From the sequence record PZ445416.1: DNA of 50,192 bases; one strand, given 5' to 3'. Source of the DNA: a phage. This document shows positions 13,831 to 49,610 of this stretch, in pieces (the first letter of the stretch is position 1; the number at the start of each line of letters is the position of its first letter). The position numbers and the translations under genes are program-made. The notes beneath the pieces are model-generated. The model was not told the DNA's origin. It worked only from the letters and a program-made list of their open reading frames with translations, and ran no database searches.

Positions 13831-13846
13831 CGCCACATAACAAAAA

Positions 13847-13868
13847 CCCGCCTTGCGCGGGTTTTTTT
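13847..13868 (+). terminator. rho-independent terminator
   Basis: CCCGCCTTGCGCGGG hairpin then TTTTTTT; identical hairpin recurs at 16026. Confidence 0.75.
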
Positions 13869-13909
13869 GTAGCTGTAGAATGGTTGCAGGTAAACAAGAG
13901 GAAAAATCA

Positions 13910-15423: not shown

Positions 15424-16019
15424 ATGATGTAAAAGTAATTAAATTGTCAGGTTCACTTGGGAGACGCTTCGGCGTCTTTCACCGTTACGCTGTTGACTCT
15501 TACCCGGAAGCCATACGGGCGCTATCCAGTCAGGTGGACGGATTTAAAGAGTACATGCAAAGCGAGGTAGGATCTCGTAGCAGGTTTGCAATATTTGTGG
15601 ATGGCGTTAACGTGGGACACCATGAAGAGGAAAAATTCAAGTGCGCGAAAGAGATAAGAATCGTACCGATCCCTACTGGCTCTAAGACAGGAGGTCTATT
15701 TCAGGTTGTATTGGGCGCGGCAATAATGGTTGCAGCATTCTATACTGGCGGCGCGTCTCTGGCTTTAATGGGCACAATGTCCTCGTCTCTGTTTATGATG
15801 GGTGGCGCTATGGTGCTGGGCGGCGTGATGCAGATGATTTCACCGCAGCCGGGTGGCGCAAACTTTGAAGTTCAATCAAGCAAGAATAAACCTTCGTACG
15901 CGTTCGGCGGTGCTGTCAATACGACGGCGGCGGGATACCCTCTCCCGGTCCCGTATGGATATCGCGCCGGAGGTGGCGCAACTTTCTCAGCAGGTTCTTA
16001 TGCCGAGGATATGAGTTAA
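15420..16019 (+). CDS. tail assembly protein (lambda I-like)
   Basis: 199 aa with Gly/Ala/Met-rich hydrophobic C-terminal half; position between K-like and J-like genes. Confidence 0.6.
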   Translation: MNDVKVIKLSGSLGRRFGVFHRYAVDSYPEAIRALSSQVDGFKEYMQSEVGSRSRFAIFVDGVNVGHHEEEKFKCAKEIRIVPIPTGSKTGGLFQVVLGAAIMVAAFYTGGASLALMGTMSSSLFMMGGAMVLGGVMQMISPQPGGANFEVQSSKNKPSYAFGGAVNTTAAGYPLPVPYGYRAGGGATFSAGSYAEDMS

Positions 16020-16025
16020 AATTAA

Positions 16026-16048
16026 CCCGCCTTGCGCGGGTTTTTTTT
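16026..16048 (+). terminator. rho-independent terminator
   Basis: CCCGCCTTGCGCGGG hairpin then TTTTTTTT, followed by TATAAT at 16054-16059 ahead of the J-like gene. Confidence 0.75.
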
Positions 16049-16096
16049 CGCCTGTATAATGAGTCCACCGATAAATAGCACAAAAAGGTAAACATC

Positions 16097-26651: not shown

Positions 26652-26696
26652 AAAAAACGCGTAGAAGGATGTTAACCCGCTACGCGTCGTTTGTTT
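26652..26696 (-). terminator. terminator/attenuator-like hairpin between HTH gene and primase
   Basis: Minus strand stem CGCGTAG / CTACGCG with 15-nt loop followed by TTTTTTA; long loop makes it weak. Confidence 0.4.
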
Positions 26697-27148
26697 TAAC
26701 TAAAAATGCTATTCGTCGTTCCAATATCTTCCTTCTTCACGACTCGCATAAACTTCTTGTTTTTGCATCGCTTCTCAAGGCACTTTCCGTTCCCATCAAA
26801 CTTCAGATCGAATCGTAGCCATGCCGCCCGGAATCCTTTGCAACCCTGTCGGCGGTAAGCACGATGCGCTGCTTCAGCGCCTTGCCATGAAATCATATTG
26901 CGATCTTTCCAGCCTTGCACCGTCTGATTGCTAACTTTTAGAGCCTTTGCGCAGGCCGCAGGACCACCGTAATATTCGATAAGAGCATCCAATCGCGCTC
27001 TCAGTCCTGCGCGCGTTTCTTCTTTATGGATATAAAATCCGCAGCGCTGGCGAGGCTTTTTATCTTTACCGCGTCGTGTTCCGTTGTTACCATTGATGTG
27101 ACGTTTATCGATTTCACCAGTAGACTCTGCGATACGTTTCATATTCAT
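26696..27148 (-). CDS. HTH DNA-binding protein (YdaS/Cro-like)
   Basis: Start moved to MNMKR after AGGAG; segment GGPAACAKALKVSNQTVQGWK resembles YdaS/XRE-type helix-turn-helix; basic N-terminus. Confidence 0.5.
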   Translation of the reverse strand: MNMKRIAESTGEIDKRHINGNNGTRRGKDKKPRQRCGFYIHKEETRAGLRARLDALIEYYGGPAACAKALKVSNQTVQGWKDRNMISWQGAEAAHRAYRRQGCKGFRAAWLRFDLKFDGNGKCLEKRCKNKKFMRVVKKEDIGTTNSIFS

Positions 27149-27161
27149 CTTAATTCTCCTG

Positions 27162-27204
27162 TAGCACTTTTTGCTAAAAACGTTTACTGTATGCCGTGTA
27201 TTAT
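27162..27204 (+). promoter_or_regulatory. Box-A cassette (putative phage promoter/operator) upstream of helicase
   Basis: TAGCACTTTTTGCTA, 22 bp, TATTAT; in the divergent gap between the HTH gene and helicase. Confidence 0.6.
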
Positions 27205-27242
27205 ATCGTAAACGATACAACGATTCAAAGGATTAAATAGCC

Positions 27243-29261: not shown

Positions 29262-29674
29262 TTACAGACAAAGGCGATTATTTGGAGTTTTACGAACGAG
29301 ATCCCAGTGATACGCGAAAGGAGGATGCGCACCAGGTAGATTGCGTGTCCTGGCTGAAATACAATTTCCCACACCTTCTATTTTGGCACACTGTCAATGA
29401 AGGTGAAAAAACAATCACTTCAGCACTCAGGGATGAGCAGGCTGGATTACTTAAAGGTGTGTCAGATTTCGTTATCCTGATTGGTGTTAACTCACGATAC
29501 CCGTTTGCAGCAATAGAACTCAAACGGGTTAATAAGTCAGGCAAAGGAAAGGCGTCACCAGTCAGCGACAAGCAAAGGGAATTTCTCCGAAAGGTCAGGG
29601 AGCGTGGCGGCTTCCCCGCCGTCGCATACGGATTTGAGCAATTCAAGGTCGCAATTTACGAATTGATGAAATAG
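29258..29674 (+). CDS. VRR-NUC domain nuclease
   Basis: 138 aa with D...ELK-type catalytic pattern (VSDFVI, AAIELKR) typical of VRR-NUC; coupled to helicase stop. Confidence 0.65.
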   Translation: MITDKGDYLEFYERDPSDTRKEDAHQVDCVSWLKYNFPHLLFWHTVNEGEKTITSALRDEQAGLLKGVSDFVILIGVNSRYPFAAIELKRVNKSGKGKASPVSDKQREFLRKVRERGGFPAVAYGFEQFKVAIYELMK

Positions 29675-29714
29675 CACTTTTTGTTAAAACTGCTGGAATG
29701 GAATCTGGCATTAT
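29672..29714 (+). promoter_or_regulatory. Box-A cassette upstream of dam
   Basis: TAGCACTTTTTGTTA, 22 bp, CATTAT; TAG is the stop codon of the VRR-NUC gene. Confidence 0.6.
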
Positions 29715-29741
29715 TATCTCACCGAAACGAGAGGACTAAAG

Positions 29742-30455: not shown

Positions 30456-30703
30456 TGAGCGAAAAAATGGTTCCTGTTAAATTAACTGAGCAAGGTTTAT
30501 GGCTACTTTATCGAGCTACGTGCTGCGAGATTATGGAGCGAAATGGATTGACTAAGGATGTTATTGGTTGCGATCTGTGGGAGTTCACTAGTTCTCTTGA
30601 TATGTCTTTCGAAGAGATAAGGAATGAATACATTGAGAATTGGCCATTAATCATCCAAAAAGACGTAGAAGAACTTTCTTCTGAGATAATCACACAGCAC
30701 TAA
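30452..30703 (+). CDS. hypothetical protein
   Basis: Start at MMSEK after GAGGAAAG, overlapping the dam stop; 83 aa. Confidence 0.45.
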   Translation: MMSEKMVPVKLTEQGLWLLYRATCCEIMERNGLTKDVIGCDLWEFTSSLDMSFEEIRNEYIENWPLIIQKDVEELSSEIITQH

Positions 30704-30737
30704 TTGCTAAAACTACCCGGCGAAAGTCGGGTATAGT
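30695..30737 (+). promoter_or_regulatory. Box-A cassette
   Basis: CAGCACTAATTGCTA, 22 bp containing hairpin ACCCGGCGAAAGTCGGGT, TATAGT; upstream stop TAA is inside the box. Confidence 0.6.
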
Positions 30738-30769
30738 TATTTCATGGAAACGAAATGAGGAATCAGAAG

Positions 30770-30979: not shown

Positions 30980-31229
30980 GCGCGAAGTGTGGGAGCACGC
31001 AAAGGAATGCGGAATCTCAGACGATATAGCACTAATAGCAAAATATTTCGATATAAAGGATGTTAGCATTATCTCAAACGGAAAGATTTCATTTATGGAA
31101 GATATGCCGAGAAAAATGCATAGAGTGCCAGCTACCCCATCACTTGAATTTTATCGTGAAGAAGGAAAGAGAATTGAGCGAGAACGAAAAACAGCAAAGA
31201 GCAACAAGTCTTCCAGGCTTAAACATTAA
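30957..31229 (+). CDS. hypothetical protein (frame-ambiguous region)
   Basis: 90-aa ORF overlapping a second long ORF in another frame over a Lys/Glu/Arg-rich AAG/GAA-repetitive stretch. Confidence 0.35.
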   Translation: MLIKKKGKREVWEHAKECGISDDIALIAKYFDIKDVSIISNGKISFMEDMPRKMHRVPATPSLEFYREEGKRIERERKTAKSNKSSRLKH

Positions 31230-31461
31230 CTTAGATGACTACCAGACCATATGGATCGGAAAGAAGCAGGTTAAGAAAATCCCTTTCTCTGATTGGTTGC
31301 CTCCTGACTTCGTTAATGTGCTTTGCACTATTGGGATCGAGCAAGAGTTGCATATAGGTTATTACTCACCAGGTAGAAACAGTATGATGCTTGAGGTTAA
31401 TGGAAAACTGGTTGAGTTTAAATCTTCAGATCTAGGATTCTGGTTAAAGGCTGTGGCATGA
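31060..31461 (+). CDS. hypothetical protein (frame-ambiguous region)
   Basis: 133-aa ORF; its C-terminal 80 aa look protein-like but the N-terminal part overlaps 30957-31229; no convincing RBS. Confidence 0.35.
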   Translation: MLALSQTERFHLWKICREKCIECQLPHHLNFIVKKERELSENEKQQRATSLPGLNINLDDYQTIWIGKKQVKKIPFSDWLPPDFVNVLCTIGIEQELHIGYYSPGRNSMMLEVNGKLVEFKSSDLGFWLKAVA

Positions 31462-31539
31462 GACTTTATTTTGCTGTAGTATTAACACCGCTAATTTCAT
31501 TTTCAGTAATGTATTTCATTATCATGTAAGGATTAAAAT

Positions 31540-32691
31540 ATGTCACAATCTAAAATCACTACCGAGCAACTTATCGAAGAACGCATGAACGGACTTACAC
31601 TTCGCGAGATCGCGGAAAAGTACGGTATGCACATTCGCACGGTTGAAGCTCGCCACGCAAAATTGGCAAAAGAAGGCCACTTCCACGGTAACGAGCATGT
31701 CGCTAAGAACGTACCGGAAGGATTCATGGTAAAAGGTACATCAACGATGATTCGCGGAGATGGGACCGAGGTAGTGCGCTGGGTTAAAACCGATCAGGAC
31801 CGTGAGAAGATCGCGGCAATGATGGAAGCGGCGCGCATTGCATTCTGTGAAGACCTGCCGCGAGCAAAGCCAACCGAGCTACTAGCCTCGCAAGGGCTTA
31901 CGACAGCGATGGGTAAGTTGGCGCTCTATCCGGTGTTCGATCTTCATATTGGTGCGCTTGCTCATAAGCATGAATGCGGTGAGAACTATTCCACCGACGT
32001 AGCGGAAAAAGTGCTTAGCGACTTCTTTAATTACGCGATCGATATCGCGCCGAACGCAGAGAAGGCTGTTCTGTTAATCGGCGGCGACTTCCTTCACTCT
32101 GACGGCCTTGATGCAGTTACCCCGGCAAGTGGTCACGTTCTTGATCAGGACTCACGATACGCAAAATTAGTTCATGTTGCGATTCGTTCGGTACGCCGAG
32201 CCATCGACAAAATGCTTATGAAACACAAAGAAGTCGAGGTCCAGGTTATCGAAGGGAACCACGATCAGTCTGGGATGATTTGGCTGCGAGCTGCAATGTC
32301 GGCATATTATGAAGACGAGCCGCGAGTATTCGTTGACGTTAGTCCTATGATTCTGCATAAGACTCGTTGGGGAAATACCTTGCTGGGATACACTCACGGG
32401 CACACTATGAAAAAGGCAGACACGCGACTTGCAGCAATGGCGGCAGATTTCCGGTCAGACTTCGGTGAGAGCAAGTATGTGTATACTCATAGCGGTCACT
32501 GGCATCACCAGACAATCACTGAGCACTCGCTTGGTATTGATGAAGTACACGGTCAGTTAGGCGCGAAAGATGCATACGCCGCGCGAGGCGGGTGGCGCTC
32601 ATATCGCCAGGCGGCGGTAATAGTTTACGATAAACAGTTTGGTGAAATCGGTCGATTCATCTACCGTCCAGAAATGACAGGATCGCACTAA
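31540..32691 (+). CDS. metallophosphoesterase with N-terminal HTH domain
   Basis: N-terminal LTLREIAEKYGMHIRTVEARHAKL is HTH-like; calcineurin-type motifs GGDFLHSDG, EGNHDQ, GHTHG and GHWHH. Confidence 0.65.
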   Translation: MSQSKITTEQLIEERMNGLTLREIAEKYGMHIRTVEARHAKLAKEGHFHGNEHVAKNVPEGFMVKGTSTMIRGDGTEVVRWVKTDQDREKIAAMMEAARIAFCEDLPRAKPTELLASQGLTTAMGKLALYPVFDLHIGALAHKHECGENYSTDVAEKVLSDFFNYAIDIAPNAEKAVLLIGGDFLHSDGLDAVTPASGHVLDQDSRYAKLVHVAIRSVRRAIDKMLMKHKEVEVQVIEGNHDQSGMIWLRAAMSAYYEDEPRVFVDVSPMILHKTRWGNTLLGYTHGHTMKKADTRLAAMAADFRSDFGESKYVYTHSGHWHHQTITEHSLGIDEVHGQLGAKDAYAARGGWRSYRQAAVIVYDKQFGEIGRFIYRPEMTGSH

Positions 32692-32725
32692 TTGCTAAAG
32701 ATACCCGAATCCCTTCGGGTATAGT
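32683..32725 (+). promoter_or_regulatory. Box-A cassette
   Basis: TCGCACTAATTGCTA, 22 bp with perfect IR ATACCCGAA/TTCGGGTAT, TATAGT. Confidence 0.6.
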
Positions 32726-32754
32726 AATCACATCGAAAACAAAGAGGATATATC

Positions 32755-32931
32755 ATGAAACTAGTTAAGTGCATCCGAAATGACTCCAAAACACTTCCAT
32801 TCCGCGTAAATCAGATCTATAGTGTTGGTTATGATTTCGGTGGGGGATTATTTGAGATTCACGATGGTCGAGGTTCAGCAATCCAGGCTCCTCTGAACGG
32901 CAGCTATCTGGAATTTATTGCGATAGATTAA
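32755..32931 (+). CDS. small hypothetical protein (58 aa)
   Basis: ORF MKLVKCIRND..., absent from the supplied track; sits at the canonical distance downstream of Box-A cassette 32683-32725 with RBS AAAGAGGA. Confidence 0.4.
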   Translation: MKLVKCIRNDSKTLPFRVNQIYSVGYDFGGGLFEIHDGRGSAIQAPLNGSYLEFIAID

Positions 32932-33049
32932 CAATATCATTCATCACCTTACAGGCTGGCATGATTTACATGCTGGCCTTTTTGCGTTGTGTCAAATAAA
33001 TTTGAAGGTTAAAATCAACTCACTTGTTCAAAAAATATATGGTGAGATT

Positions 33050-33265
33050 ATGAAAGAATTTTTAACCGCAGCTACGTCTAGCACGGGCGGGGCTTCATTA
33101 GTGGGGGCGGCGACCGGGCAACTTTATATTGCTGGCGCTACATTCATTTGCTTTCTGCTTTTTGGTGCTTGGGGCGCATACTGGAAGTATCGTGATAGCA
33201 AGGCGATTCAGGAAGCGTTAAACGATGGCGATCTAAATAAGGCACTTAAGATCAGGGGGAGATAA
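33050..33265 (+). CDS. putative holin
   Basis: 71 aa with one strongly hydrophobic segment ([21 protein letters not shown]) and charged C-terminus; stop overlaps the endolysin start. Confidence 0.55.
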
Positions 33266-33753
33266 TGAGCTTAAAAAATAACGTTATAGGCGCATCGATC
33301 GGGGCTGCTTTGACGTTGACGCCTACCCTACTGGAACGAATCGAAGGGATAGAATACGAGGTGTATTACGATATCGCCGGAGTCCCTACCGTATGCAGCG
33401 GAATAACCGGGCCTGACGTCATACCTGGTAAGAAATACACTAAGCGAGAATGCGATGCATTGCTGATAAAACATATCGGCGTCGCTCAGCGATACGTTGA
33501 CAAAAAGGTGAATGTTGATATTCCGGTAACGATGCGCGCGTCACTGTACAGCTTCACTTTCAACGTTGGTACTGGCGCGTTCGGATCTTCTACAATGCTT
33601 AAGCTAATAAATCAGAGTAAGCACAAGGAAGCGTGCAATCAGTTATGGCGATGGGTATACTACTACAACCCAAAAACAAAAAAGCGAGAAGTGTCTAGAG
33701 GACTCAAGAACCGACGCGCTGAAGAATACGCGTATTGCGTTAAGGAATTATGA
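33265..33753 (+). CDS. endolysin (lysozyme-like muramidase)
   Basis: 162 aa; N-terminal [26 protein letters not shown] resembles the catalytic E...D...T region of GH24 phage lysozymes. Confidence 0.75.
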
Positions 33754-41070: not shown

Positions 41071-41316
41071 ATGAGTATGAGCAAGATTAAGCATGACGCC
41101 CTGAAAGGTATCTTGATGCGACTAAACCCAGGCGAAGCATTCCAGCTTAACCCCGAGACGTTTGGATTCAATGGTGATTATCGTACAACCTTCGAATTTG
41201 TAAGGTATGTAAAGAAAGAGTTTGGATTCGAAGTTATTCACGCAGGTCTTATCAATGGCATCCAGACATTCATCTTTAAGCCAAATGAGATTCGTTGCTT
41301 CACGATGATGAAATAG
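41071..41316 (+). CDS. hypothetical protein
   Basis: 81 aa, RBS AAGGAGAG; its stop TAG is the first triplet of Box A at 41314. Confidence 0.5.
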   Translation: MSMSKIKHDALKGILMRLNPGEAFQLNPETFGFNGDYRTTFEFVRYVKKEFGFEVIHAGLINGIQTFIFKPNEIRCFTMMK

Positions 41317-41356
41317 CACTTTTTGTTAAAGCCCGGTCGAGCGGATCGGGTATTAT
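41314..41356 (+). promoter_or_regulatory. Box-A cassette
   Basis: TAGCACTTTTTGTTA, 22 bp, TATTAT, leader CATCGACACGATACAGAGGA. Confidence 0.6.
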
Positions 41357-41388
41357 CTTCTCATCGACACGATACAGAGGAATCGAAG

Positions 41389-41585: not shown

Positions 41586-42056
41586 ATGGCGACAATTACC
41601 GTATTCCTGGCTAAAGATGAGATTGATGGCGAAATGTCATTCTTCGCGTTTGAGCACAAGACCGGATCGCACTGGCACATGTACAGTCACTACACGGTTA
41701 TTGATATCAACTCATACGCTTGCGATTCGCTAAATGAAAAACTTGGTCGATTCATTGAGCATGTTAAATTAAGAGATGGTGGCGAGTGGAATGATAAGCA
41801 TGAAGGTCGACGCATGTGTGACATGATTGATCCTGTTTATCTGGAGTCGTTCGAGCTTGATGCTGATGTTGCCATTAAGGTGAGAAAGTCGGGTGAATTG
41901 TTGCCAGGGATGCGTGTGCTGACTGGTTACTCGGGCCGTAAGGTGTGGCGCACTGTATCCAAGATTCGCCAGCGTTCGGCAACATGCTATAGCGTATTCT
42001 TTGATGATGGTTGGAATATGATTTCCGGCAGTGAGGTAAAGTATCTCACCAAATAG
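41586..42056 (+). CDS. hypothetical protein
   Basis: 156 aa; stop TAG is the first triplet of Box A at 42054. Confidence 0.5.
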   Translation: MATITVFLAKDEIDGEMSFFAFEHKTGSHWHMYSHYTVIDINSYACDSLNEKLGRFIEHVKLRDGGEWNDKHEGRRMCDMIDPVYLESFELDADVAIKVRKSGELLPGMRVLTGYSGRKVWRTVSKIRQRSATCYSVFFDDGWNMISGSEVKYLTK

Positions 42057-42096
42057 CACGAATTGTTAAAACCGGATCGGGGTATCTTGCTATAGT
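42054..42096 (+). promoter_or_regulatory. Box-A cassette
   Basis: TAGCACGAATTGTTA, 22 bp with IR GGGGTA/TACCCC, TGcTATAGT. Confidence 0.6.
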
Positions 42097-42134
42097 TACC
42101 CCATCAAAACGAGATACCAATCAGAGGATTCACC

Positions 42135-42884: not shown

Positions 42885-43076
42885 ATGGCTGACTTTATGC
42901 ACCAAATGATTGCAGTATTCAAAGGTAGCGAAGATGAGGAAGTAAAAGAGTGCTTTACTGTCGACAAGCCTTATAACGCTTCTCTGACCAGCTTCGGTAA
43001 CATCTCATTGCTTGATGATAATGGCGACCCCTGGGTATTCGATGAAGATACGGATTGCTTCGAAATTAAAGAATAG
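42885..43076 (+). CDS. hypothetical acidic protein
   Basis: Start at MADFMHQ after AGAGG; stop TAG is the first triplet of Box A at 43074. Confidence 0.5.
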   Translation: MADFMHQMIAVFKGSEDEEVKECFTVDKPYNASLTSFGNISLLDDNGDPWVFDEDTDCFEIKE

Positions 43077-43116
43077 CACTTTTTGTTAAAACGCGATCAT
43101 ATGGTTGCGATATAGT
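43074..43116 (+). promoter_or_regulatory. Box-A cassette
   Basis: TAGCACTTTTTGTTA, 22 bp, TATAGT, leader CACATCAACAACGAATGAGGA. Confidence 0.6.
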
Positions 43117-43147
43117 AACCACATCAACAACGAATGAGGACGAGAAC

Positions 43148-44214: not shown

Positions 44215-44363
44215 TGGCGGCGTGGATTTTGATTATCTTGATGAGTACCGGGCCGGATCACGTATACATGGAAAGTCAGCAATCATGCAACAAGGCTCGG
44301 GAAGTAATTGCAGAGAGCAAGCCGTTCGGATACGAAGTAAAAACGATGTGCGTTAAACGATAG
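44214..44363 (+). CDS. small hypothetical protein (49 aa)
   Basis: ATG overlaps upstream TAA; hydrophobic N-terminus (AAWILIILMS); stop TAG is the first triplet of Box A at 44361; absent from the track. Confidence 0.35.
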   Translation: MAAWILIILMSTGPDHVYMESQQSCNKAREVIAESKPFGYEVKTMCVKR

Positions 44364-44403
44364 CACGAATTGCTAAACCTTCCGCAAGGCCATTTGATAT
44401 AGT
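44361..44403 (+). promoter_or_regulatory. Box-A cassette
   Basis: TAGCACGAATTGCTA, 22 bp with IR AAGGCCA/TGGCCTT, TGaTATAGT. Confidence 0.6.
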
Positions 44404-44443
44404 GGCCTTATTGAAGCAAGGCAACCAATCAGAGGAATCAGCT

Positions 44444-46510: not shown

Positions 46511-47122
46511 ATGGATAAAATTACCATTTGGGGACAGACAATCAACCTGTTTCTCGGCACGCGCCGCGTAGCAATCTTTGACTTTGATGGAACACTTAGC
46601 GATGGATCTGGTCGACTTCACCTGCTACCTACAAAGGATTTGCAATTAACTGAAAGCTGGTCCGAGTTTAACCGCGCGGCAATATTTGATAACCCAATCA
46701 AGAGTACGATTGAAGTGATGAACTCTATGTTTGCCGCTGGGTATCATGTGATCATTTTAACCGGGCGAAGTGATGAGGTGCGTTACGCATCTGAGTTATG
46801 GCTTAAGCATCACGGCGCTCGATATGATTACTTAGTCATGCGACCGCATACCGACAACCGCAAAGACACGGTAATGAAAGAAGAGGCAGTGCGCGCGATC
46901 GGCATTGAGAACATTCTGGCGGCCTGGGATGACTCACCGCAAATTATTCCATTATTCCGCTCGCTTGGAATAACAACTTACGCTGTAGTTGACTATGGCG
47001 ATAACGTTCACAATCATTTAAAATCTCACGGGGTAGATGAGGTTTGCAATCATGAACCATCTGAGCCGCTACCGCCATTTGGTGAGAAAATTTGCATTAA
47101 GTGCAAGGAGTTATTGAAGTGA
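46511..47122 (+). CDS. HAD-family phosphatase (polynucleotide 3'-phosphatase-like)
   Basis: N-terminal DxDGT motif (IFDFDGTL) typical of HAD phosphatases such as the T4 Pnkp phosphatase domain; C-terminal CxxC pair. Confidence 0.65.
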   Translation: MDKITIWGQTINLFLGTRRVAIFDFDGTLSDGSGRLHLLPTKDLQLTESWSEFNRAAIFDNPIKSTIEVMNSMFAAGYHVIILTGRSDEVRYASELWLKHHGARYDYLVMRPHTDNRKDTVMKEEAVRAIGIENILAAWDDSPQIIPLFRSLGITTYAVVDYGDNVHNHLKSHGVDEVCNHEPSEPLPPFGEKICIKCKELLK

Positions 47123-47230: not shown

Positions 47231-47803
47231 ATGAAAACAGCTATCATTTTAAACGGCGCACCTGGTGCGGGAAAGGACACTATCGGATGCATCCTGGCTG
47301 ACACTTACGATCACGTAGCGCTACGCAGCTTCAAAGCGCCAATGTTTGAGATTGCCCGAGCAATCCTGGGTGAGACTAATTTCGAGTATTTCATGTTCTT
47401 GTACGAGGACCGTCGCTATAAAGAAGAGCCAACATCAATCCTGAACGGTAAAAGCCCACGCCAGTTCATGATCTGGATTAGCGAGGAGGTCATCAAGCCG
47501 CAGTTCGGAAATCGCTTCTTCGGTATGCGAGCGGAAAGCAAGGTGAAAGAGTCGCACTCCCTTTCGGTATTTACTGACGGTGGATTCAAAGATGAGATCC
47601 TACAAATGATTGAAGGTGATATCCAGGTTAAGCTATGTCGAATCCATCGCAACGGTTGCAGCTTTGATAACGACAGCCGAGACTATATCTATCTTGACGA
47701 TATGATCGGGGTCAACGGTTATCAGGAATGTGACTTCTTTTCTGTCGAAGGCCATCCAGAAATTACCGCTCAGCACATAGCCGCCACGTTCATCAACAAA
47801 TAG
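47231..47803 (+). CDS. P-loop kinase (polynucleotide 5'-kinase / nucleotide kinase-like)
   Basis: Walker A LNGAPGAGKDT at residues 7-17; 190 aa; adjacent to the HAD phosphatase gene. Confidence 0.6.
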   Translation: MKTAIILNGAPGAGKDTIGCILADTYDHVALRSFKAPMFEIARAILGETNFEYFMFLYEDRRYKEEPTSILNGKSPRQFMIWISEEVIKPQFGNRFFGMRAESKVKESHSLSVFTDGGFKDEILQMIEGDIQVKLCRIHRNGCSFDNDSRDYIYLDDMIGVNGYQECDFFSVEGHPEITAQHIAATFINK

Positions 47804-47843
47804 CACGAATTGCTAAAACTTCGGTGGGGTGATTTGATATAGT
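47801..47843 (+). promoter_or_regulatory. Box-A cassette
   Basis: TAGCACGAATTGCTA (TAG is the kinase stop), 22 bp, TGaTATAGT, leader CATCGACAACGAAGAGAG. Confidence 0.6.
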
Positions 47844-47875
47844 TACCTCATCGACAACGAAGAGAGAAAATCGAA

Positions 47876-49559: not shown

Positions 49560-49569
49560 TAAACACTAA

Positions 49570-49590
49570 CCCGCTCCGGCGGGTTTTTTT
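49570..49590 (+). terminator. rho-independent terminator before TerS
   Basis: CCCGCTCCGGCGGG hairpin then TTTTTTT. Confidence 0.75.
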
Positions 49591-49610
49591 ATGCCTGCAA
49601 TATGGTAAAA

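Follow-up and report, generated by a model that had tools for sequence, protein, structure and literature searches.

Phage PZ445416.1, a T1-like phage of the genus Tunavirus (Drexlerviridae), carries at positions 31540-32691 a gene encoding a metallophosphoesterase (MPE) with an N-terminal helix-turn-helix (HTH) domain. The window, i.e., the whole stretch of 50,192 nucleotides analysed here, corresponds to about one genome length. Judged from its sequence, this HTH-MPE protein is a real MPE with an intact active site, and we see about an even chance that it is an HTH-tethered DNA phosphodiesterase, that is, a nuclease, which functions in replication, recombination or nucleotide salvage. The open reading frame is complete, and its boundaries are exactly those given in a first-pass annotation of the window (Table 1).

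According to the first-pass annotation, the protein contains a calcineurin-type core with the motifs GDxxH, GNHD and GHxH. All three are present as motifs II, III and V, and the set of five is completed by motifs I and IV, which were not listed there. Both marks of the calcineurin-like MPE superfamily are found in the protein, namely five metal-binding motifs (DxH, GD, GNH(D/E), H and GHxH) and a beta-alpha-beta-alpha-beta sandwich or PF00149 match. Among 65 diverse homologues (31-98% identity), no substitution occurs at D134, H136, D183, N240, H241, H286 or H322, and H320 reaches at least 90% conservation, which argues for strong selection for an active enzyme. Motif II is followed by a conserved insert (H186...D188...T194-P-x-S-G-H199-x-L-D202-x-D204-x-R206). 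The Pfam Metallophos score lies below its threshold (16.0 vs. 21.5 bits), the NCBIfam search returned noise only, and a single-sequence search of the PDB gave nothing meaningful; the HTH-MPE family was therefore regarded as a divergent clade.

The same 65 homologues were used to build an AlphaFold model (pLDDT 92.5, pTM 0.80), which replaced a poor model from 13 close homologues only (pLDDT 67). As the first-pass annotation had proposed, the first 50 residues are predicted to fold as an HTH, a bundle of three helices with a turn and a recognition helix, for which the block-mean pLDDT is 95-97 at residues 11-40 and 81 at residues 1-10. Pfam matches of the protein itself to Sigma70_r4_2 and HTH_23 are weak and sub-threshold (E ~0.01). 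A precomputed PF08281 match exists for a 72%-identical orthologue cluster (P0062), other family members match Sigma70_r4_2 (1.5e-9), GerE (2.4e-8) and HTH_8 (1.8e-6) significantly, and the family profile weakly matches GerE/LuxR-type HTH structures in the PDB (E=0.036). The domain was accordingly assigned to the sigma-70 region 4 or LuxR-GerE type, and it presumably binds DNA. In nearly all family members, the N-terminus carries a single HTH domain or two of them, and the type is interchangeable, including Fis-type HTH_8, LysR HTH_1 and HTH_23; the longer members that were checked show extra HTH domains only. Between the HTH and the MPE domain lies a family-specific beta-hairpin followed by a helix (consensus VKGxSTLYDxDGxxxxxWVKT). 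Its residues G66, S68, G75, W81 and K83 do not vary in an alignment of 13 sequences, and in that of 65 only G75 and W81 reach at least 90% conservation. The hairpin region persists even in homologues without an alignable HTH, indicating that the family core consists of hairpin, helix and MPE domain, with an exchangeable DNA-binding head.

The nuclease reading draws on the structural neighbours of the model. The top neighbours are nucleases, including the 3'-5' proofreading exonuclease DP1 of PolD (structural comparison score 16.0), Mre11 (14.8) and SbcD (14.6), followed by MJ0936 (13.9), LpxH (13.5), polymerase B subunits (11-12.4), a nuclease MPE of P. putida (9.1) and PPP protein phosphatases (at most 8.9). 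Foldseek did not discriminate among Vps29, Mre11, DP1, GpdQ and Rv0805, all of which were found at about E=1e-7. In the viral structure library BFVD, the relatives are phage proteins of about 400 residues, some of them labelled 'DNA polymerase II small subunit', and the sole MPE matches of sequence profiles in the PDB, both non-significant, are Mre11/SbcD of T. maritima (E ~0.5) and the P. putida nuclease MPE. Mre11 proteins carry the motifs DxHLG and GDLFH, which the DxHxG (motif I) and GDFLH (motif II) of the window protein resemble. On this comparison of models, the enzyme leans to the nuclease members and away from the lambda phosphatase PP-lambda, with a modest margin over small-molecule phosphodiesterases.

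The first-pass annotation had suggested either an Mre11/SbcD-like nuclease or a sequence-targeted phosphatase. The protein falls outside the Mre11/SbcD family, because it lacks the C-terminal capping domain of that family and no Rad50/SbcC partner is present among the annotated products of the related phage SH6 or next to homologues; the protein has an N-terminal HTH and beta-hairpin instead. Likewise, it was placed outside the DP1 family, to which its identity is only 12%, because it lacks a complete OB fold and the DP2 catalytic partner: no phage DNA polymerase is present among the annotated products of phage SH6. The ligase-associated single-stranded DNA endonuclease of P. putida (PdeM) is much smaller (~200 aa), lacks an HTH and belongs to a LigD/Lhr repair operon, and its matches to the HTH-MPE protein are far under family thresholds. 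A functional precedent is provided by Gp48 of mycobacteriophage A10ZJ24, a cluster A MPE with five motifs, which was experimentally shown to be a phosphodiesterase and DNA nuclease that degrades host DNA (PMC12287305). The likeness is taken at superfamily level, and Gp48 has no N-terminal HTH or hairpin module, since its first motif starts at residue 10.

The gene is an ordinary, previously catalogued core gene of Drexlerviridae. The DNA at positions 31000-33300 shares 92-96% identity with Escherichia phage CLB_P3, with Shigella phages SH6 and Shfl1 and with further Tunavirus members, and the protein is 99.7% identical to a protein of CLB_P3. Its RefSeq counterpart, SH6 gp63, is labelled 'DNA repair exonuclease', as is PHROG 704, to which the protein belongs by a full-length profile match (E=1.3e-157; residues 4-380 aligned to positions 2-389 of a profile of length 390). 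The family comprises 5,309 representative clusters (50% identity) at E<=1e-3, far beyond chance, and homologues occur in 2,018 of 50,697 phage records (~4% of sequenced phages), including 508 of 522 Drexlerviridae. The family occurs in Drexlerviridae, Guernseyvirinae, mEp021-type temperate phages and phages of Vibrio, Campylobacter, Rhodobacter and Ruegeria, and many Proteobacteria carry it in prophages.

In the examined loci, the gene is always located in a DNA metabolism context, where the early or middle region ends. The order in the window is helicase, VRR-NUC nuclease, Dam methylase, small open reading frames, HTH-MPE, SH3, holin, endolysin and spanin; in phage mEp013, HTH-MPE is preceded by the O initiator and one open reading frame and followed by a DnaB-type helicase; and in a Pseudomonas prophage, O, P, NinB and NinG/Rap come before it and lysis genes after it. 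Other loci have a Q-like gene downstream. Recurrent immediate neighbours in relatives are a gene labelled 'polynucleotide kinase' ('PNK') and a deoxynucleoside monophosphate (dNMP) kinase gene, and the same kinase genes were reported as the commonest downstream neighbours (PMC13164509). The former is of the HAD type and, by its sequence motifs, probably encodes a 3'-phosphatase rather than a kinase; both genes are also carried by the window (Table 1). No conserved partner, Rad50-like or other, was found across 43 diverse loci, and no neighbour family is common to more than nine of them, suggesting that the enzyme has no obligate partner. The DNA metabolism context, the nuclease neighbours, the invariant metal ligands and the HTH heads were all counted in favour of a nuclease.

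As a nuclease, the protein would be a stand-alone, divalent-metal-dependent phosphodiesterase, in which the binuclear MPE site cuts phosphodiester bonds in DNA, and the HTH, possibly together with the conserved hairpin, would keep the enzyme on DNA. It would be expressed with the replication and recombination genes (helicase, VRR-NUC and Dam) from a promoter of the Box A type described below, before the lysis cassette. Its job is probably the processing of DNA ends or of replication and recombination intermediates, the breakdown of DNA for re-use of its nucleotides via the phage HAD 3'-phosphatase and dNMP kinase, or both. Phages T1 and TLS break down host DNA and re-use its nucleotides, with no responsible gene having been identified (PMC11447400). 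Together with the Gp48 precedent, this makes a role on host DNA attractive, and the HTH-MPE protein could be the long-sought host-chromosome nuclease of T1 and TLS, whose products would feed the 3'-phosphatase and the kinase, though we hold this identification to be unlikely. If it were true, a knockout should show the classical T1 phenotype of high transduction without degradation of host DNA, which bears on transduction frequency and on the safety of therapeutic phages. A more speculative variant would have the HTH read Box A or ACCARTCAG, the two genome-wide motifs of T1-like phages.

Several points weigh against a nuclease of this kind. The protein ends about eight residues past the MPE fold and has no capping domain like that of Mre11/SbcD, and no Rad50/SbcC partner is present among the annotated SH6 products or conserved in the 43 loci. 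Where DP1 and the polymerase B subunits possess an OB fold before the MPE domain, only the two-stranded hairpin and a helix are found. Literature searches, which also covered escape mutants, essentiality screens and T1 gene 2.5 (degradation of host DNA), gave no specific biochemical or genetic data on any family member, and the sparing of phage DNA by a non-specific nuclease has no explanation. The family is also common in temperate phages and prophages, and wholesale destruction of the host genome is therefore unlikely as its general role. Database names for this large family, which is conserved at every catalytic residue, are in conflict ('DNA repair exonuclease', 'proof-reading exonuclease', 'Ser/Thr phosphatase' and 'sigma-70 region 4 protein'), and identification of the substrate would correct thousands of annotations.

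Other activities of the MPE domain have to be considered. The protein might heal nucleic acid ends, removing 2',3'-cyclic or 3'-phosphates at breaks in DNA or RNA like the MPE domain of bacterial Pnkp, in conjunction with the HAD phosphatase and the kinase encoded by neighbouring genes. We consider this quite unlikely: no ligase is present among the annotated SH6 products (the window's own reading frames were not systematically screened for one), and the linkage to kinase and phosphatase genes is absent both in the window, where they are located at a distance, and in temperate phages. Slightly less probable still is a phosphodiesterase or pyrophosphatase acting on cyclic or linear nucleotides, such as immune second messengers or diadenosine tetraphosphate (Ap4A), in which the HTH would provide localisation or autoregulation. 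Destruction of signalling nucleotides by phages is well known, and the close structural matches MJ0936, YfcE, Rv0805, GpdQ and LpxH act on small substrates. However, a DNA-binding head conserved over thousands of clusters has no evident use in an enzyme of soluble nucleotides, the PADLOC defence and anti-defence models did not match the protein, and the gene context is one of replication and recombination, not an early anti-defence cluster.

The least probable activity is that of a protein serine/threonine phosphatase like lambda NinI (PP-lambda). NinI occupies the same slot in lambdoid prophages, after NinG and before Q and the lysis genes (ninG, ninH, ninI, Q), just as, in prophages, the HTH-MPE gene has NinG/Rap on one side and a Q-like gene or lysis genes on the other, and some database relatives bear the label 'serine/threonine protein phosphatase'. 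In lambda, the MPE enzyme adjoins a small Fis-type HTH protein, NinH, and some members of the HTH-MPE family have a Fis-type HTH_8 head, here fused instead of separate. Nevertheless, NinI belongs to a different MPE clade with a distant fold match, and the window protein has FDLHIG, GGDFLHSD and GNHD in place of the PPP signatures GDxHG, GDxVDRG and GNHE.

The first-pass annotation also put the protein forward as a candidate for the Box A binding protein. Box A (TAGCAC-N4-TGYTAAA) has 29 matches with at most two mismatches in the window, vs. 2.5 expected, and is always co-oriented with the downstream genes. An earlier study described it in phage TLS (aaATAGCACnnnTTGnTAAAA, 21 copies) and recorded it in T1, Rtp and Rogue1 as well, with no function assigned (PMC11447400). 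In 20 of the 29 copies, a -10 hexamer (TATAGT or similar) begins exactly 20 nt after the final TAAA, and a conserved CATCGAAACGA-like start, with a predicted +1 at CATC, follows 6 nt after the -10. There is no -35 element at normal spacing, and Box A is centred near -42. If the HTH were to read Box A, the protein would activate or repress most phage promoters, with the MPE domain as an accessory. The HTH is of the sigma-70 region 4 or LuxR type, Box A occupies the place expected for a class II activator site, the recognition helix keeps I/L/V32, R33, V35, E36 and R38 throughout the T1-like phages, and no Box A binder is known (PMC11447400). T1-like loci with an HTH-MPE protein of at least 61% identity all carry Box A, at 2-7 sites per 10 kb.

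On the evidence of sequence comparison, however, the protein is probably not the Box A reader, a role that we consider very improbable. Phages of the mEp013/mEp021 type carry 58-60%-identical HTH-MPE proteins without Box A: 50 kb of mEp013 contain no site with at most one mismatch, and one with at most two, vs. 2.8 expected by chance. Over the first ~87 residues (HTH and hairpin), their proteins share 51% identity with the window protein, no less than many from Box A-positive phages, for which the range is 40-63%. The gene is encoded as well by Guernseyvirinae (~45% identity), by phage L089, which has SP6-like promoters, and by prophages, and in all of these loci, as in the mEp013/mEp021 type, Box A amounts to 0-1 sites per locus and at most 0.7 per 10 kb. 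The HTH-MPE protein and Box A thus do not co-vary across the family; within the Drexlerviridae the comparison is uninformative, since all carry both, and in the T1-like clade alone co-occurrence cannot discriminate among core genes. Moreover, one HTH class can replace another within the family, whereas the catalytic site does not vary, and the role is disfavoured because the gene itself lies behind a Box A promoter and presumptive early genes with such promoters need to be transcribed before any phage protein is made. An alternative phage candidate is a Cro/YdaS-like HTH protein encoded between primase and helicase, beside a divergent promoter region where one Box A copy reads as Box A on both strands. 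The outer half-sites TAGCA...TGCTA may also be similar to both ends of YAGHAWATTWTDCTR, the SELEX (in vitro selection) consensus for E. coli Lrp, so that Box A could instead be read by a host factor.

Table 1. Coordinates of the HTH-MPE gene, its parts and other features of the window.
Feature	Position (nt)	Strand	Residues (aa)	Description or basis
HTH-MPE open reading frame	31540..32691	+	383 + stop	Complete; ATG start; open reading frame list
Shine-Dalgarno AAGGA	31528..31532	+		7 nt 5' of ATG; sequence reading
N-terminal three-helix HTH domain	31540..31683	+	1-48	Helices 8-16, 21-27, 32-44; AlphaFold model and profile matches
Beta-hairpin and helix	31720..31854	+	62-104	Hairpin 62-86, helix 88-104; AlphaFold secondary structure
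MPE catalytic domain	31906..32664	+	123-375	Motifs I-V; motif reading and model
Motif I			134-136	D134-L-H136
Motif II			182-186	G182-D183-F-L-H186 (GDxxH)
Motif III			239-242	G239-N240-H241-D242
Motif IV			286-288	H286-G-H288
Motif V			319-323	G319-H320-W-H322-H323 (GHxH, 319-322)
Box A promoter nearest upstream	30695..30737	+		Box A 30695-30711, GC hairpin, -10 TATAGT 30732-30737
Box A promoter overlapping the HTH-MPE stop codon	32683..32725	+		Box A 32683-32699, hairpin 32701-32722, -10 TATAGT 32720-32725
Box A promoters, example sites	42054-42105, 43074-43125, 44361-44412, 37124-37070 (-), 47801-47852			~20 sites in window
Box A promoters, second subtype	29672-29730, 30695-30740, 32683-32725, 34462-34410 (-), 41314-41360			Stem-loop in spacer
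Cro/YdaS-like HTH gene	26696-27148	-		P22_Cro, E=5.5e-5, sub-threshold; within region 26696-27220 (-)
Box A copy on both strands	27160-27178			Divergent promoter region
DUF7244 (SH3-like) gene	32755-32931		58	Between HTH-MPE gene and holin; E=3.2e-27
HAD-phosphatase gene	46511-47122			FDFDGT (DxDGT) motif; matches C-terminal phosphatase part of Pnk profiles
P-loop dNMP kinase gene	47231-47803			Next after HAD-phosphatase gene
ACCARTCAG, example sites	9908, 22449, 42116, 44424, 46491
Terminator-promoter junctions, late region	13838-13882, 16017-16061, 49560-49604

The Box A promoter nearest upstream probably drives the small open reading frames and the HTH-MPE gene as one operon, as no other promoter-like site or strong terminator was found between the two. 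The promoter that overlaps the HTH-MPE stop codon serves the SH3, holin, endolysin and spanin cassette, and the 3' arm of its predicted hairpin overlaps the first bases of the -10. The SH3-like DUF7244 protein of this cassette was recently described as a component of the Drexlerviridae lysis module (PMC13164509).

Many Box A promoters possess short inverted repeats of differing sequence that flank the -10 (e.g., GGGGTA...TATAGT TACCCC and AAGGCCA...TATAGT GGCCTT), so that the hexamer would sit in a hairpin loop. The mean stem formed by a promoter's own arms is 5.05 bp vs. 3.81 bp with arms swapped between promoters, and none of 20,000 permutations reached the observed value. These repeats are not mentioned in the description of TLS (PMC11447400). 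Promoters of a second subtype have the spacer from Box A to the -10 filled by a GC-rich stem-loop, whose 3' arm extends into the TA of the -10 (e.g., ATACCCGAAtcccTTCGGGTATagt), and these stem-loops look like terminators of the upstream unit fused to the next promoter.

The window also contains 28 sites of the 9-mer ACCARTCAG in both orientations, vs. 0.59 expected, mostly inside genes, and about eight copies lie directly 5' of a start codon with its Shine-Dalgarno sequence (ACCAATCAGAGGA...ATG). No description of this motif was found in the searchable literature. Its density is 1.2-6.2 per 10 kb in T1-like loci (4.9-6.2 in Tunavirus loci), and it is rare or absent in other phages with HTH-MPE genes. 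The window has no E. coli Chi site, and ACCARTCAG is therefore not related to Chi. In the late region, a strong terminator hairpin (AACCCGCCTTGCGCGGGTTTTTTT) is present in three copies, each immediately followed by TGTAGAATG, TGTATAATG or TGCAATATG, an extended -10-like element. Finally, phage L089 (IMGVR_UViG_2974653390_000001, 44.6 kb), whose HTH-MPE protein is 43% identical to that of the window, carries repeated TTAGGCACTACAATAG elements at seven sites (e.g., 6754, 7959, 8045 and 17150), which resemble promoters of SP6-type single-subunit RNA polymerases.
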